A program made the position numbers and the translations under genes. Below the pieces are notes generated by a model, which was not told the origin of the DNA, ran no database searches, and saw nothing but the letters and a program-made list of their open reading frames with translations. This document shows, piece by piece, positions 47,418 to 51,986 of a stretch of DNA of 64,000 nucleotides; position 1 is the first letter of the stretch, and every line of letters starts with the position of its first letter. Origin of the DNA: Candidatus Methylomirabilota bacterium (GTDB taxonomy: Bacteria > Methylomirabilota > Methylomirabilia > Rokubacteriales > CSP1-6); NCBI GenBank assembly GCA_035281625.1, contig DATEDO010000105.1:102-64101 (forward strand), read 5' to 3'.

Positions 47418-47567
47418 GCGGCGCGCGCGACGTGAGCGGGCGGGAAAATATGGCGTCCCGTGACGCGCGGCGGCGCGGCCGGCGTAGGACTTACACGGGC
47501 GGCGTGTAGGGATTACATCGTCGACTACCGGCGTCCGCCTCCGTGACCGGCAGCCGCGGCGCCGACC

Positions 47568-48686
47568 TCATCCGTGCCGGCGTGCGGCGCCATCTGATGA
47601 GCGAGTTCGGTCTGCTGCGCGCGGGCGGCTCGGCGCCCGGGGCGTCGCGGGGCCGCCGAGCAGCGCGGTGAGGCGCGGGCGCGCGCCCGCCTCGATTTGC
47701 TCCCGCGTGCACTGGCGCGGCGCCTTGTCGGGCCGCCAGCGGACGAAGCGCGTGCCGTGGCGGAAGCGCCCGCCGCTGACGTGATCGTAGCCGACTTCCA
47801 CGACCAGCCGCGGCGCCAGCGGCACCCACTCGCCGGAGCGCTCGGTGCTCCAGCGGCTGGGGCCGCCCGGCGCGTTGCCGGTGAAGCCGGAGCCGCCCAT
47901 CAGCGGCCGCAGCTTCCCGAGGAGCGCTCGCCGGTCGGCCACGCTGAAGCCGGACGTGAAGCCGACGTGGTCGAGCCGGCCCTGGCCGTCGTAGAGGCCG
48001 AGCAGGAGCGAGCCCACCACCTTCCCCGCGGAGGCGTACCGGAAGCCGCCCACCACGCAGTCGGCGGTGCGGAGACGCTTCACCTTCACCATCGCGTCCC
48101 GCGTGCCGGACGCGTAGGGAGCGTCCAGGCGCTTGGCGACGACGCCGTCCAGGTTGCCGCCGGCCCGCGAGAGCCAGGACTGCGCGGCCTCGAGCTCGGT
48201 GGCCGCGGGCGAGAGTCGAATGGTGGCGGCGCGGGCGAGATGCGCGCGGGCGAAGGCCTCGAGGCGCGGCCGCCGCTCCGCGAGAGGTCGCTCGACGAGC
48301 GGGCGCCCGTCGGCGTCCACGAGGAGATCGAAGGCGATGAGCCAGGCCGGCGTCTCCTCGGCAAGCCGGCGCACGCGCGAGGGCGCGGGGTGGATGCGCT
48401 GGAGCAGATCGTCGAAGGAGAGCCGGCCGTCGACGGGGACGACCAGCTCCCCATCCAGCACGAAGCGCCGGGCCGGGAGCGCGCCCACCGACGCCACCAC
48501 GTCCGGGAAATAGCGCTCCAGCGGCTTGCCCGCCTTGGACCGGAGCGCGACCGACTCGCCATCGCGGAAGACGAGGCAGCGGAATCCATCCCACTTGGGC
48601 TCGTACTGCCAGCCGGGTCCGGTGGGGATCGCGTCCACGAGCCGCGCCTCCATGGGCGGGTAGTCCGGGCGGAGCGGCAGCGTCAT
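47568..48686 (-). CDS. ligD: ATP-dependent DNA ligase (stand-alone LigD ligase domain)
   Basis: YEPKWDGFRC (adenylation Lys), LDGEL, DGVVAKR and VKVKR motifs. ATGA overlap with the upstream gene. Confidence 0.92.
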   Translation of the reverse strand: MTLPLRPDYPPMEARLVDAIPTGPGWQYEPKWDGFRCLVFRDGESVALRSKAGKPLERYFPDVVASVGALPARRFVLDGELVVPVDGRLSFDDLLQRIHPAPSRVRRLAEETPAWLIAFDLLVDADGRPLVERPLAERRPRLEAFARAHLARAATIRLSPAATELEAAQSWLSRAGGNLDGVVAKRLDAPYASGTRDAMVKVKRLRTADCVVGGFRYASAGKVVGSLLLGLYDGQGRLDHVGFTSGFSVADRRALLGKLRPLMGGSGFTGNAPGGPSRWSTERSGEWVPLAPRLVVEVGYDHVSGGRFRHGTRFVRWRPDKAPRQCTREQIEAGARPRLTALLGGPATPRAPSRPRAADRTRSSDGAARRHG

Positions 48687-49636
48687 GCCACGCGCTCGAG
48701 TCGGAAGCGGCCGGTCCGGGCCAGCATCGGCGCGTAGAGATCGCCCAGGCGCTGGAGCCGGGCGGGCGCATTGTCGATCCGGAAGTCCTCGACGCGCGCG
48801 CCGCCGGCCACCTCGTCCCACGTGAGGGGCATGGACACGGGCGCGCGCGGGCGGGGGCGCACCGAGTACACCGAGGCGAGCGTGCGTCCCCACGCGTTCT
48901 GGTTGTAGTCCACCAGCACCCGGCCCGCCGGCCGCCGGGCCACGCGGTACTCCGCGGTCACGAGGCTCGGCCGCTCGCGGGCGAGCGTCTGCGCCACCGC
49001 TTTGGCCACCCGCCACACCGTCTTCTGGTCGGGGCCGCGCACGATGGGCACGTAGATGTGGATGCCCCGCGAGCCGGTGGTCTTGGGATAGGCGGACATG
49101 CCCACGTCCTCGAGCGCGGCGCGCACGAGCAGGGCCGTCTCGCGCACCCGCTCGAACCCGGCGCCCGGCACCGGGTCGAGATCGAAGTGGAGATAGTCCG
49201 GCCGGTGGACGTCGTCGCAGCGCGCATACCACTGATTGAGATCGATGCAGCCGAGGTTCACCACCCACAGCAGTGACAGGAGGTCCTGCACCATTGGGAA
49301 GTCGATCACGTTGCCGGACGCATGATCGATGCGGCACGTCTCGATCCAGTCGGGGCGCGGCGCCGGCGCGCGCTTCATGAAGAAGAACGGGCCGGCCGCG
49401 CCATCCGGGTAGCGCTTCATGACCATGGCGCGGTCGCGGAGATGCGGCAGCAGGTACGGCGCCACCGCCACGTAGTAGCGCAGGAGGTCGCCCTTGGTCA
49501 GGCGGGGGCGCGCCCAGAACGGCTTGCGCAGGTTGGTGAGGGTGACGGCGCGACCGCCCAGCCGCACCTCCACGGTGTCCCGGTCGGGCGGGACGACCGC
49601 CGCGGGGTCGAGGGCGGGCCGCGCGCGCGGGCTCAT
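48683..49636 (-). CDS. LigD polymerase/primase domain protein (archaeo-eukaryotic primase fold)
   Basis: DYLHFDLDP, KTTGSRGIHIYVP and VLVDYNQN motifs. Confidence 0.92.
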   Translation of the reverse strand: MSPRARPALDPAAVVPPDRDTVEVRLGGRAVTLTNLRKPFWARPRLTKGDLLRYYVAVAPYLLPHLRDRAMVMKRYPDGAAGPFFFMKRAPAPRPDWIETCRIDHASGNVIDFPMVQDLLSLLWVVNLGCIDLNQWYARCDDVHRPDYLHFDLDPVPGAGFERVRETALLVRAALEDVGMSAYPKTTGSRGIHIYVPIVRGPDQKTVWRVAKAVAQTLARERPSLVTAEYRVARRPAGRVLVDYNQNAWGRTLASVYSVRPRPRAPVSMPLTWDEVAGGARVEDFRIDNAPARLQRLGDLYAPMLARTGRFRLERVA

Positions 49637-50247
49637 GGCGCGCGCACGAGACGGGGCGGTCGCACGCCGTGGCGCACCGCGCCGCGCACGCCGACGTAGT
49701 CGAGCTCCGCGCCCACGCGGGCGCAGCGCAGGAGCAGGCCTCCGCGGCTCATGTCGCCGCGCCCCACGAAGTCGGCGGGGAAGCGCAGGCGCTCGCCGAA
49801 GACCTCCAGGAGCGGGTCGAGATACTTGCCGGTGGCGATGCTGCCCAGGAGCACCACGTCGCAGCGCGCGCCCAGGAGCGGCGCGAAGCGGAGCGCGTCG
49901 CGCCGGAGGGGCTCCACATAGCGCGGGTTCCCCGCGTCGATGTCCACTTCGGCGAAGCGGCGCAGCCGCGCCAGGTCCACCATCTCCACCGCCGGCACGA
50001 GCCCGTCGGTGGGGGTGATCACGAGCACGCCGGAATGGCCGGCGGGCGGACGGGCGAAGGCCTCGGCGTAAGCGAGCTTGCCGCGGAAGTAGAGCCCGCT
50101 GAGGAACGAGAAGACCTCGCCCAGGGGCGCCCCGCCGGGGCCGCGCAGGCGCTGGGCCAGATCGAAGCGGGCCGCGGGGCTGAACACGAGCCGGGCGCGC
50201 TCGCCGCCGCAGTGCGCGGGCGAGAGCAGGAAGATCCGCCGCTTCAC
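49633..50247 (-). CDS. Hypothetical protein (204 aa) embedded in the PolX-LigD operon
   Basis: GTG 50247 overlaps the PolX stop (GTGA), and its own stop overlaps the LigD-pol ATG (ATGA). Sequence: RIFLLSPAHCGGERARLV...VVLLGSIATGKYLDPLL...FVGRGDMSRGGLLL. No family recognised. Confidence 0.65.
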   Translation of the reverse strand: MKRRIFLLSPAHCGGERARLVFSPAARFDLAQRLRGPGGAPLGEVFSFLSGLYFRGKLAYAEAFARPPAGHSGVLVITPTDGLVPAVEMVDLARLRRFAEVDIDAGNPRYVEPLRRDALRFAPLLGARCDVVLLGSIATGKYLDPLLEVFGERLRFPADFVGRGDMSRGGLLLRCARVGAELDYVGVRGAVRHGVRPPRLVRAP

Positions 50248-51986
50248 CGGGGGCCCACCGGCGCCACCGCCCGGGCGAATCCGGCCGTGTTCAGGGTGTT
50301 CAGCACCTCGTCGCGTCGCACCCAGCCGCGCCGCGCGATGATCGTCCCGTAGCGGAGGTTGTCCAGCTCGTCGACGGCGTGGGCATCCGTCGAGATGACG
50401 AAGCGGAGCCCGCGCTCGCGCGCGGCCCGCAGCCAGCGGGGCGCCATGTCGAGCCGGTGCGGATCCCCGTTGATCTCGATGGCCGCGCGCGAGGACGCCG
50501 CCGCATCCAGAACCGCCTCCACGTCGACCTCGATGGGCGGCCGCGAGGGGATGAGGCGCCCCAGGGCGTGGCCCCAGATCTTGAAGCAGGGATGAGCCAT
50601 CGCGCGCGTGAGCCGTCGCGTCATCTCCGCCGGCCCCATCCGGTGCCGCTGATGGATGCTGGCGATGATGACGTCGAGGCGCTCGAGAACGGCGTCGGGG
50701 TAGTCGAGCGCTCCGTCGGCGAGGATGTCGGACTCGGTGCCGCGGAGCAAGCGCACCGACACCTTCTCCTGCACGCGGTCGATCTCGTCCCACTGCGCGC
50801 GCAGCCGGTCCACGGTGAGGCCGTTCGCGTAGGTCGCGGTGGGCGAGTGGTCGGTGATCGTGAGGTACCGCATGCCGCGCGCCTCCGCCGCGCGCGCCAT
50901 CTCCTCGACCGTGTTGCGGCCGTCCGAGTACACGGTGTGGCAGTGCACGAAGCCCTGCACGTCGTGCATCGCCACCAGATCGTCGGGCAGGCGGCCGGCG
51001 AGAGCGGCCTCGATCTCGCCGGTGTCCTCGCGAAGCTCGGGCGGAATGAACGGCAGGCCCAGATGCGCGTAGAGCTCCGGCTCGTCCTTCGCGGACAGCG
51101 GGGTGTCCCGCCCCGCTCGCGTGAGACCCGCGGGCCCGAGGCGCAGCCCCCGCGCTTCCGCGATGCCGCCGAGGCGCGTCAGGTGCGCGCGGGCGCCGGT
51201 GGCGTGGAGGAGCGCGGCGGCGTGGCGGTCCGGACGGGTCACCCGCACCTCGAGGGGCAGCCCGCTCTCGAGCACCGCCCGGTGAAGGTCGGGCCGGCTC
51301 TCGGTGATCGACACCACGCCGGGCAGCGCGAGCAGGTGCCCCCGCGTCGCCGCCGGCGTGCCGGAGGCGGCCACGATCTCCAGCCGGTCCACCAGCTCGG
51401 CGCCCCGGCGGAGATCGCCCGCGATCTCGACCGCGGTCACCCCGGGCGCCCGCCGCAGGTGCGCGAGGACGGGATCGGCGTCGGCGAGCGCGTGCGACAG
51501 GAGGGCGCGCGCCGGTGCCGGCTCCTCCAGCCGCCGGATGGCTTCGAGGAGGCGCGCTTCCGTCTTCTCGCCGAATCCCTTCACGCCGCGGACACGGCCG
51601 GCCTCCGCCGCCGCCCGGAGGTCGGCGATGGTCTCCACGCCGAGGGCCTCGTGGAGCGCGGCGATCCGGGCCGCGGGGAGCCGGAGGCGAGCCAGCTCGG
51701 CCGCGCCGGGCGGATGCCCCGCGCGCAGCGCTTCGAGGGTCTCCGATCGGCCCGTCTGGCGCAGCTCGCTGATGCGCGCGGCGAGGCCGGCCCCGATGCC
51801 CTGCAGCCCGGTGAGCCGCCCCTCGGCGGCGAGTCGCTCGAAGGTCGCGTCGTCGAGCGACTCCAGGACCCGGGCGCCGCGCGCGTAGGCGCGCGCCTTG
51901 AAGGCGTCCTCGCCGGACAGGTCGAGGAGGCGTCCCATCTCGCGCAGCGCCCGCGCGACGCCGAGCCGGTCGTTAGCAAGGGCCAT
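50244..51986 (-). CDS. polX: Family X DNA polymerase with C-terminal PHP phosphoesterase domain (PolX)
   Basis: HhH motifs (GIGAGLA, GFGEKT). PHP motifs HCHTVYSDG, ITDHS and STDAH. Confidence 0.9.
   Translation of the reverse strand: MALANDRLGVARALREMGRLLDLSGEDAFKARAYARGARVLESLDDATFERLAAEGRLTGLQGIGAGLAARISELRQTGRSETLEALRAGHPPGAAELARLRLPAARIAALHEALGVETIADLRAAAEAGRVRGVKGFGEKTEARLLEAIRRLEEPAPARALLSHALADADPVLAHLRRAPGVTAVEIAGDLRRGAELVDRLEIVAASGTPAATRGHLLALPGVVSITESRPDLHRAVLESGLPLEVRVTRPDRHAAALLHATGARAHLTRLGGIAEARGLRLGPAGLTRAGRDTPLSAKDEPELYAHLGLPFIPPELREDTGEIEAALAGRLPDDLVAMHDVQGFVHCHTVYSDGRNTVEEMARAAEARGMRYLTITDHSPTATYANGLTVDRLRAQWDEIDRVQEKVSVRLLRGTESDILADGALDYPDAVLERLDVIIASIHQRHRMGPAEMTRRLTRAMAHPCFKIWGHALGRLIPSRPPIEVDVEAVLDAAASSRAAIEINGDPHRLDMAPRWLRAARERGLRFVISTDAHAVDELDNLRYGTIIARRGWVRRDEVLNTLNTAGFARAVAPVGPR

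Follow-up and report, generated by a model that had tools for sequence, protein, structure and literature searches.

The window analyzed here is a 64,000-nucleotide stretch of a contig from a Candidatus Methylomirabilota bacterium. It carries a four-gene operon in which a protein of 204 residues, referred to here as X204, is encoded between a PolX with a PHP domain and a stand-alone primase-polymerase, with an ATP-dependent DNA ligase gene following (Table 1). A preliminary description of the locus had placed X204 between PolX and LigD-Pol with 4-nucleotide overlaps at both ends. Domain searches confirm the identity of both neighbors, and the overlaps are seen in the sequence: the GTG start (50247 to 50245) overlaps the PolX stop codon TGA (50246 to 50244) to give GTGA, and the stop codon TGA (49635 to 49633) overlaps the ATG of the primase-polymerase (49636 to 49634) to give ATGA. 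The primase-polymerase and ligase genes also overlap by ATGA. Translational coupling joins all four genes, and their products are therefore made together. When aligned with PolX of T. thermophilus (3AU2), the PolX of the window has its polymerase carboxylates replaced, with “GDLDFL” reading “DRLEIV” and “VDLRV” reading “LEVRV”.

Table 1. Genes, motifs and other features at the X204 locus (window coordinates)
Feature	Coordinates	Strand	Description
PolX with PHP domain	50244..51986	minus	First gene of the operon; HHH_8, pol-beta thumb, and PHP (Pfam); NF006375
X204 (feature under study)	49633..50247	minus	204 aa, GTG start; basic, pI 10.5
Primase-polymerase, stand-alone, LigD type, Prim-PolC-like	48683..49636	minus	PF21686 (LigD_Prim-Pol), E 1.6e-88; TIGR02778, 233 bits (cut-off 214.7)
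ATP-dependent DNA ligase, stand-alone, LigC type	47568..48686	minus	PF01068, PF04679; NF006078/PRK08224, 463.8 bits (NF006078 cut-off 296)
Terminator-like hairpin	47453..47466	minus	About 100 nt past the ligase stop; consensus scan only
Motif I, residues 6-17, FLLSPAxxGGxR	50197..50232	minus	End of strand beta-1 and loop into helix 1
Motif II, residues 48-60, FxSGLYFRGKxxY	50068..50106	minus	Most conserved block of X204
Motif III, residues 74-85, VxVITPxxGLxP	49993..50028	minus	Strand-turn-strand
Motif IV, residues 132-142, VLLGSxxxxKY	49822..49854	minus	End of strand beta-4 and loop into helix 7
Motif V, residues 160-174, FVGRGDMSRGGLLLR	49726..49770	minus	R163, G164, D165, M166, S167, R168 invariant
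Basic C-terminal tail, residues 194-200, GxRPP[KR]L	49648..49668	minus	R196, P197, L200 invariant in 88 sequences

The operon combines a LigC-type ligase with an adjacent stand-alone primase-polymerase and contains no Ku gene. Two Ku genes lie on other contigs of the genome, and true LigD phosphoesterase (PE) genes are also present elsewhere. A canonical Ku gene paired with a full-length LigD gene is found on another contig; the operon in the window is therefore a Ku-less module of the LigC/Prim-PolC type. It includes no kinase, and the X204 encoded in it is not fused to one.

Judged by its conservation, X204 (49633-50247, minus strand; VKRRIFLLSPAHCGG...RPPRLVRAP*) is a genuine gene rather than a chance reading frame, because homologs with 57 to 95% identity in several phyla share the same N-terminal start, M-x-R-[IV]-F-L-L-S-P-A. 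A longer in-frame version extending to 50793 (386 aa) was rejected as the gene since the homologs begin at this common N terminus.

Conservation within the protein is strongest in Motif II, where at least 96% of the 172 sequences keep S50, Y53, R55, K57, and Y60. Residues S9, P10, A11, G15, and R17 of Motif I are invariant, as are G135, S136, K141, and Y142 of Motif IV. The loop “GSIATGKY” was considered as a Walker A motif and rejected, as its second glycine varies. About 14 invariant polar residues are located at strand ends and helix starts; one Asp is invariant (D165), one Glu is nearly so (E181), and a conserved His is absent. Invariant polar residues in such numbers are commoner in enzymes than in plain DNA binders. 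The 172 family members have a median pI of 10.4 and a median net charge of +12. The conserved C-terminal tail, which is listed for 80 loci and is modeled with a pLDDT of 77 to 84, may serve for docking or for contacting DNA.

The preliminary description had named no domain in X204, and our searches agree: there was no match at an E value of ≤1 in Pfam-A, NCBIfam, PADLOC, or PHROGs, and PDB sequences gave only chance-level matches whether queried with the single protein or with an 88-sequence profile. Its exclusion of Ku, of a LigD phosphoesterase, and of a recognizable nuclease is likewise borne out by profile searches and by Foldseek searches of the PDB. Neither the Ku HMM (PF02735) nor the LigD 3′-phosphoesterase models (PF13298/TIGR02777) match X204, which, having no conserved His, is missing the His/Asp metal site of the latter. 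At 90% identity the family falls into more than 8000 clusters and at 50% identity into 1583, and it occurs in at least 581 species from about eight soil phyla. It is a large, unnamed, very basic family of soil bacteria, whose clusters bear only the name “hypothetical protein” and which is not described in the literature on DUF6884, YfjM, YaaA and DNA repair, Prim-PolC and LigC, or DUF328 and ligase.

The genes surrounding X204 were compared across 80 loci from Methylomirabilota, Verrucomicrobiota, Acidobacteriota, Gemmatimonadota, Actinomycetota, and other phyla. In 51 of these loci, the next same-strand gene after X204 encodes a LigC-type ligase (NF006078; 28 loci) or a LigD-type primase-polymerase (23 loci), and all partner matches at this downstream position are on the same strand. 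The ligases adjoining X204 in Verrucomicrobia and in the window belong to a single equivalog, NF006078, with scores of 450 to 470 bits. The association with repair enzymes claimed in the preliminary description is thus conserved across several phyla rather than local, but its setting is not Ku-dependent end joining. That description had also proposed a phylogenetic profile against LigD-Pol. X204 was found in 46 of 121 genomes of the phylum, and PF21686 is present in all 46 carriers versus 29 of the 75 noncarriers; in at least 35 genomes, the listed coordinates place the two genes within about 1.2 kb of each other on one contig. PolX is found upstream of X204 in only 5 of the 80 loci, and at one locus (L067) a LigD-PE gene is directly upstream. 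No repair gene occurs within about 7 kb of X204 in 21 of the 80 loci. At Udaeobacter-type loci X204 is followed by a CBS-domain gene, and at related verrucomicrobial loci it is preceded by a gene for a Na+/H+ antiporter.

X204 also occurs as a domain of longer proteins, 551 of which were found. Among the best 120 long relatives, 85 are fused to AAA_33, a polynucleotide-kinase-like P-loop kinase, with the kinase first in 56 cases and X204 first in 20. The fused kinase carries the motifs GxPGxGKST, VSRD, and VDNTN, and its best matches are the kinase domains of PNK-3′Pase (TIGR01663) and bacterial Pnkp (TIGR04075). These fusion genes are solitary, with no ligase gene nearby. One further relative, P0318, is a fusion of LigD-PE and X204. 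Apparent fusions to PolX, PHP, primase-polymerase, HxlR, GNAT, MlaD, and nucleotidyltransferase were dropped as gene-call merges; P0278, P0314, and P0296 were inspected and look like frame-shifted merges, and the others are presumed to be merges likewise. By operon structure, translational coupling, and fusion, the X204 family is tied to five break-repair modules: LigC, primase-polymerase, PolX, PE, and Pnk.

To place X204 structurally, we used an AlphaFold2 model of the protein (pLDDT 92.6, pTM 0.90) and a second, independent AlphaFold model (pLDDT 94.5). Foldseek searches of the PDB with these two high-confidence models returned no neighbor (best E values of 0.04 and 0.11), and the solved YaaA structure (5CAJ) was absent from the top 50 matches of both. 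The first model was also searched against BFVD, a collection of predicted viral structures, where the top four matches were phage YaaA/DUF6884 proteins (probability 1.00, E values of 3.8e-4 to 1.1e-3, and TM scores of 0.43 to 0.63, for one model against predicted structures). An hhalign comparison of X204 with a DUF6884 alignment gave an E value of 0.0058 at a probability of 6%, the highest in any YaaA/DUF6884 comparison, and the best of 20 column shuffles was not below 0.16. This weak alignment places Motif II on the DUF6884 block “DLYxSxLFRxxxxYA” and sets the LSAxxG motif of DUF6884 against “VITPxxGL” of X204, with the Gly and hydrophobic positions kept and Ser-Ala replaced by Thr-Pro. Four separate comparisons by hhalign and hmmsearch paired Motif III with the “ILSAKYGL” block of DUF6884 and the “LSGLYGVLRP” block of YaaA. 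X204 matched neither PF21818, which is absent from the whole source genome at an E value of ≤1, nor the PF03883 HMM, and hhalign comparisons with E. coli YaaA alone and with a small canonical YaaA alignment were no better than shuffles. Canonical YaaA was not found in the source genome or in five other X204 carriers. An initial by-eye pairing of “LSGLY” in X204 with “LSGLY” in YaaA was dropped, as the profile alignments put the YaaA block on “ITPxxGL” of X204, which is also strand-turn-strand. By the BFVD matches, the fold of X204 is not an orphan and distantly resembles the YaaA/DUF6884 DNA-binding proteins, with weak agreement from profile comparison; in predicted structures, X204 and DUF6884 share an alpha/beta core fold.

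The two families resemble X204 in different respects. DUF6884 proteins (PF21818; for example, B. subtilis YfjM and many phage proteins) are likewise small alpha/beta proteins with collinear blocks, “FR..YA..F” followed by “[IL][ST][AP]xxGL”. The family carries positive charge, is associated with DNA, and is suspected of a role in repair; YfjM was recovered on lesions of the abasic and ribonucleotide types, and base flipping into a conserved pocket has been predicted for the family (PMC11701544). However, the CxxxK motif that follows strand 1 in DUF6884 is replaced in X204 by FLLSPAxxGGxR, without a conserved Cys or Lys, and X204 alone has the invariant SGLYFRGK, LLGSxxxxKY, and GRGDMSRGG blocks and the conserved RPPKL tail. 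Also unlike DUF6884, X204 lies beside LigC, primase-polymerase, or Pnk, and tblastn searches of phage and plasmid collections found no X204 homologs. With YaaA (DUF328, PF03883; E. coli YaaA, the “cantaloupe fold”), X204 shares, by eye, five motif blocks in the same order: LLSPA (“LLSPAK” in YaaA, at the position of Motif I), a Tyr block, [IL]SGxYG or ITPxxGL, L[AG]S...Y, and RGxM[SA]R (“ARGLMSRF” in YaaA, which Motif V resembles by eye only). Profile alignment is weak but consistent, placing residues 72 to 97 of X204 on residues 106 to 131 of YaaA, whereas the stretch that separates the first two blocks is shorter in X204 by about 55 residues. The yaaA genes of E. coli and Caulobacter further differ from X204 in being solitary stress-response or damage-survival genes with no ligase partner. 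E. coli YaaA has been called a DNA-binding protein (PMC11701544), and Caulobacter requires its YaaA to stay fit when exposed to mitomycin C, UV, and H2O2 (PMC10055390), a role in DNA-damage survival like that considered here for X204.

We put the probability at roughly 0.5 that X204 belongs to a family that branches off distantly within the YaaA (DUF328)/DUF6884 superfamily and is an accessory of Ku-independent repair of strand breaks and short gaps around a LigC-type ligase. X204 is very probably a strand-break repair factor, undescribed so far. In our best reading, it would be a basic factor that binds DNA nicks, gaps, or ends in the service of LigC and that possibly processes ends as well, much as the preliminary description supposed in suggesting an end-binding or end-processing role. 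We envision that X204 would bind the damaged site, be it a nick, a gap of 1 to 3 nucleotides, or an end that is blocked, through a cleft of positive charge. The invariant residues S9, R17, S50, Y53, R55, K57, Y60, S136, K141, Y142, R163, D165, S167, and R168 would line a pocket that holds either a phosphate at the terminus or a nucleotide, whether flipped or terminal. X204 would hand the site over to its cotranslated or fused enzymes, with PolX-PHP or LigD phosphoesterase cleaning the 3′ end, Pnk cleaning the 5′ end, primase-polymerase filling the gap, and LigC sealing it. The conserved linkage, the fusions, the charge, and the fold speak for this reading, as does the background on YaaA, DUF6884, and LigC. 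Against it speak the weak sequence-level tie to YaaA/DUF6884, the absence of the solved YaaA structure from the top PDB matches, the loci with no repair neighbor, the solitary kinase fusions, and the large number of invariant polar residues. More tentatively, X204 may found a new class of strand-break repair protein, a proposal we regard as possible if somewhat unlikely. Its founding member could be an XRCC1-like nick or gap sensor and scaffold, or else an end-healing enzyme without a classic metal site, which together with Pnk would be a fifth heal-the-ends architecture. In the scaffold version, X204 might gather the Pnk kinase, PolX, primase-polymerase, 3′-phosphoesterase, and ATP-dependent ligase; eukaryotic XRCC1 has a partner set much like this one.

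In a rival reading, X204 is itself catalytic. Were X204 an end-healing enzyme, either metal independent or lacking a classic metal site, it might act as a 3′-phosphatase, a 2′,3′-cyclic phosphodiesterase, or a remover of 5′-adenylate. The Pnk-X204 fusion would then be a new bifunctional heal-the-ends enzyme comparable to T4 Pnkp, Clostridium Pnkp, and Runella HD-Pnk, and the separate X204 would supply LigC with ligatable ends. The recurrence of the fusion in both orders fits this idea, because T4 Pnkp, bacterial Pnkp, HD-Pnk, and mammalian PNKP similarly pair a Pnk-type P-loop kinase with a phosphoesterase as second module, in either order. These enzymes are also frequently associated with an ATP-dependent ligase, HD-Pnk often being encoded in an operon with one. 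Moreover, the fusion genes stand alone, as autonomous enzymes do, and the invariant polar residues are in the usual place for an active site. However, the second module of the known end-healing enzymes is a HAD, metallophosphoesterase, or HD domain with clear metal ligands, whereas X204 shows no signature of these domains or of 2H and has no such ligands, with one invariant Asp (D165), one nearly invariant Glu (E181), and no conserved His. A second 3′ healer would also be redundant where PolX-PHP (in the window) or LigD-PE (at L067 and in P0318) already heals 3′ ends, and no X204 homolog has a known catalytic activity. We consider an end-healing enzyme unlikely, though still the strongest of the rival readings.

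Another possibility is that X204 fronts an excision pathway by flipping and cutting a damaged or misincorporated nucleotide (an abasic site, a ribonucleotide, or an oxidized base), as a glycosylase or as an AP/dRP lyase acting through K57 or K141. The predicted base flipping of DUF6884 and the lesions on which YfjM was recovered are in line with this possibility, as is the adjacency of the invariant lysines K57 and K141 to invariant tyrosines. In addition, LigC and Prim-PolC take part in base excision repair, and some mycobacteria encode them in one operon with Fpg (PMC5663958); X204 would occupy the position that Fpg has there. On the other hand, a Pnk fusion partner is a better fit to broken ends than to intact lesions, X204 lacks the Cys and Lys that are conserved in the CxxxK motif of DUF6884, and the X204 models resemble no known glycosylase or lyase fold in the PDB by Foldseek, which makes such an enzyme improbable. 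Less probable again is that the link to repair is circumstantial and that X204 either is a regulator or has a target that is not nucleic acid, for example the nucleotide pool or a small-molecule phosphate ester. About one-quarter of the loci have no repair neighbor, AAA_33 kinases include small-molecule kinases too, and DNA binding by X204 is itself inferred. Yet, across phyla, X204 is connected with five different break-repair modules, whether as a neighbor, through translational coupling, or in fusions; its family is extremely basic; and its sole apparent fold relatives, as judged from models, are DNA-associated proteins.

How bacteria carry out Ku-independent repair with LigC-type ligases is understood only in part, and an accessory factor of this kind touches on the question of how nongrowing soil bacteria find nicks and short gaps and make ends ligatable. 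Although abundant, the X204 family is named by no protein family library. Its characterization would add a component to the LigC/Prim-PolC pathway, would account for the “predicted kinase” fusion protein that is very common in soil metagenomes, and would give a first functional handle on the YaaA/DUF6884 superfamily.

Among known systems, the mycobacterial LigC/Prim-PolC excision-repair complex (PMC5663958, PMC7442782) is similar to the window operon in that a stand-alone LigC-type ligase and a stand-alone primase-polymerase are encoded in one operon without Ku, and the source genome keeps a separate Ku-LigD system. In both settings the operon recruits accessory repair genes, and mycobacterial LigC scaffolds base excision repair enzymes (PMC5663958). 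In contrast, no X204-like component has been described in the mycobacterial complex, and the window operon adds both X204 and a PolX with replaced polymerase carboxylates.

The 204-aa protein X204 is read from an open frame of 204 codons with a GTG start and is coupled to its neighbors at both ends. Its GTG (50247-50245) overlaps the upstream TGA stop (50246-50244; ...CCCC-GGTGA-AGCGG... at 50248-50244), and its own TGA (49635-49633) overlaps the ATG of the next gene (49636-49634; ...GCGCC-ATGA-GCCC...). Both overlaps had been described in the preliminary description, as had the position between PolX and a LigD-type polymerase, and domain matches now bear out the identity of these neighbors. 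An in-frame extension to 50793 (386 aa) was rejected; we take the 204-aa reading to be the gene because homologues in several phyla begin at M-x-R-[IV]-F-L-L-S-P-A. The C-terminal tail does not vary from phylum to phylum, although it lies outside the folded core, and xPRRY often comes after it; the tail may be a partner docking peptide or a DNA contact.

Features of the X204 operon in the window and related loci elsewhere
Feature	Position or loci	Strand	Basis or remark
PolX (HHH_8, pol-beta thumb, PHP)	50244-51986	minus	domain matches
X204	49633-50247	minus	translation
X204 C-terminal tail G-x-R-P-P-[KR]-L	49648-49668	minus	loci L003-L082
LigD-type primase-polymerase	48683-49636	minus	PF21686, E 1.6e-88
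ATP-dependent ligase	47568-48686	minus	ATGA-coupled to preceding gene
Terminator-like hairpin	3' of ligase	minus
Own-genome Ku/LigD-type genes	contigs C225, C125, C11, C194		loci L001, L002, L098, L100-L102
Udaeobacter-type and related verrucomicrobial loci	L013, L017, L020, L026, L041, L047, L048, L054, L056, L064

Genomic linkage was assessed by tblastn against the best 80 X204 loci, with the window PolX, primase-polymerase and ligase, an own-genome Ku, and a kinase domain as queries. Directly downstream of X204 on the same strand, we found a ligase in 28 of these loci and a primase-polymerase, usually with the ligase next, in 23; a P-loop kinase is directly downstream in 3, and PolX is directly upstream in only 5. 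The Chthoniobacterales unit consists of X204 and then a ligase, with nothing more. Both this ligase and that of the window fall in the NF006078 (PRK08224) equivalog (450 to 470 bits against a cut-off of 296), which we take to be the LigC type. In an Acidimicrobiia locus (L067), a stand-alone LigD 3'-phosphoesterase (PE) is directly upstream of X204 (TIGR02777, 223 bits), and PE domains are near X204 in two further loci. No recognizable repair gene was found within about 7 kb of X204 in 21 of the 80. Udaeobacter-type Verrucomicrobia carry a CBS-domain gene downstream of X204, and related verrucomicrobial loci carry a Na+/H+ antiporter and an HxlR-type regulator upstream, which are not repair genes; the ligase link is lost or relocated in these genomes. 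At another locus (L070, 8274-9320), a full LigD is 4 to 6 kb off on the opposite strand. Among 121 genomes sampled from the phylum, 46 encode X204; PF21686 is present in 46/46 carriers versus 29/75 non-carriers, counts that we give without a statistical test because relatives cannot be treated as independent samples. In at least 35 genomes of this sample, by the coordinates listed, the X204 and PF21686 genes are no more than about 1.2 kb apart.

The protein search admits only candidates of similar length, and gene fusions were therefore sought with an artificial concatenate of X204 and primase-polymerase, of which residues 1 to 204 alone were scored. The X204 domain occurs in 551 proteins of at least 287 aa (E<=1e-10), and 85 of the best 120 of these also contain PF13671 (AAA_33). 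By motif position among the best 120, the kinase comes first in 56 and X204 in 20; since both orders exist, the fusion arose more than once. For these kinases, and for the separate ones encoded adjacent to X204, the best matches are the kinase portions of TIGR01663 (PNK-3'Pase) and TIGR04075 (bacterial Pnkp); the kinases bear GLPGAGKST, VSRD, and VDNTN, which are motifs of polynucleotide kinases. Two kinase-X204 fusion genes on long contigs are solitary, without a ligase nearby. A single sequence, the 471-aa P0318 from a Logan assembly, joins LigD-PE through a charged low-complexity linker to X204. Proteins that seemed to fuse X204 to PolX, PHP, or primase-polymerase were rejected, as they contain out-of-frame junk and read as merged gene calls. 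In two long-read MAG loci (L005, 6986-8595; L069, 6986-8650), the X204 frame continues into a primase-polymerase that is itself split over several frames, joins that probably reflect frameshifts in the assembly rather than genuine fusions.

The preliminary description could name no domain in X204, and this stands: there is no match at E<=1 in Pfam-A, NCBIfam, PADLOC, or PHROGs, and none of substance among PDB sequences, whether with the single protein or an 88-sequence profile. The family is nonetheless large. All 8,000 scored candidates in a 90%-identity protein collection match, under the name "hypothetical protein" wherever the source gives one, as do 1,583 clusters at 50% identity (E<=1e-3), and at least 581 GTDB species representatives encode it. 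The best 80 loci, nearly all from soil MAGs, span Methylomirabilota/Rokubacteria, Verrucomicrobiota (Chthoniobacterales, Udaeobacter), Acidobacteriota, Gemmatimonadota, Planctomycetota, Chloroflexota, Dormibacterota, and Actinomycetota. At source, each of ten diverse members either carries the name "hypothetical protein" or has none, and a literature search found no paper describing the family. X204 is single-copy in its own genome, and no copy was found in the phage and plasmid collections searched.

An AlphaFold2 model of X204 from the 88-sequence alignment (pLDDT 92.6, pTM 0.90) and one of a 57% identical Acidimicrobiia member (pLDDT 94.5, pTM 0.90) have the same element order, and the predicted fold is alpha/beta, with every invariant block placed where a strand ends or a helix begins. 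Foldseek searches, one of the checks suggested in the preliminary description, found no PDB neighbor for either model (best E 0.04 and 0.11, TM<=0.31). Among predicted viral structures (BFVD), the top four matches of the first model are of YaaA/DUF6884 type: a phage "YaaA", two DUF6884 proteins, and Burkholderia phage KS14 Gp8 (probability 1.00, E 3.8e-4 to 1.1e-3, TM 0.43 to 0.63). The fifth has probability 0.96, and scores drop sharply beyond it. DUF6884, which has a basic cleft and CxxxK and LSAxxG motifs, is a distant relative of E. coli YaaA ("cantaloupe" fold) according to Pfam's authors (PMC11701544). We compared profiles using YaaA and DUF6884 members gathered from genomes, with column shuffles as control. 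In hhalign, X204 54-96 (FRGKLAYAEAF...VLVITPTDGLVP) aligns with DUF6884 24-61 (FRAALQYAQRF...IFILSAKYGLVQ) at E 0.0058, with none of 20 shuffles below 0.16, and the same segment aligns with divergent YaaA at E 0.025 (shuffle minimum 0.094); against all YaaA pooled (E 0.087), shuffles did equally well. An hmmsearch with filters off gave the same register, and five collinear blocks can be followed by eye through all three groups (LLSPA; a Tyr/Arg block; [IL][ST]xxxGL; L[AG]S...Y; RGxM[SA]R). Membership in the YaaA or DUF6884 Pfam family itself was rejected: their HMMs do not match, CxxxK is absent, and solved YaaA was not recovered among the top 50 PDB hits of either model. Canonical YaaA was not found in the own genome or in five other X204 carriers. 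X204 probably belongs to the YaaA/DUF6884 superfamily, as a new, unnamed family inside a known, biochemically unexplained superfamily.

What, then, does X204 do? Among its partners LigC is the most constant; the others are primase-polymerase, PolX-PHP, LigD-PE, and a Pnk kinase. Between them, these enzymes take a strand break through cleaning, filling, and sealing, and we class X204 as a component newly added to a repair module that is already known. The window PolX aligns over its full length with T. thermophilus PolX 3AU2 (E 3e-99), and around residues 190-250 "GDLDFL" is replaced by "DRLEIV" and "VDLRV" by "LEVRV"; thus the three polymerase carboxylates become R, E, and E. Its PHP domain is intact. 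Judged from these residues, this PolX is probably polymerase-dead, with a role in gap binding and 3'-end cleaning rather than synthesis.

X204 keeps company with 3'-end cleaners of two kinds, one of which is also found fused to it, and a redundant role as a 3'-phosphatase is therefore less likely. We prefer to read it as a candidate DNA break- or gap-binding factor, with a probability of roughly one half; it would present the break or gap site to the ligase and end-processing enzymes. The family has about 14 invariant polar residues, no conserved His, and a single invariant Asp. That X204 heals ends by itself, as an enzyme, we consider unlikely. The DUF6884 protein YfjM was recovered on abasic and ribonucleotide lesions (PMC11701544). 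A lesion-processing activity for X204 appears improbable. The family is also extremely basic (median pI 10.4, median net charge +12). The reading to which we give least credence is a role that has nothing to do with nucleic acid.

The own genome has two Ku genes. On contig C225, Ku adjoins an 867-codon frame with phosphoesterase and primase-polymerase domains, a full LigD, and the two form a canonical Ku-LigD pair; C125 carries the second Ku, C11 a third primase-polymerase, and C194 a second PE domain. LigD-type modules that are separate from one another thus number at least three in this genome. Given the pair on C225, the window operon is not the end-joining system of the genome but a distinct module without Ku, of the LigC/Prim-PolC kind. 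The mycobacterial LigC/Prim-PolC module acts in base excision repair, where it fills gaps of 1 to 3 nt and seals them; LigC serves there as the scaffold on which glycosylases and end-cleaning nucleases assemble, and Fpg is part of the operon in some cases (PMC5663958). The window operon resembles this mycobacterial module in being Ku-less and in combining a ligase with a primase-polymerase.
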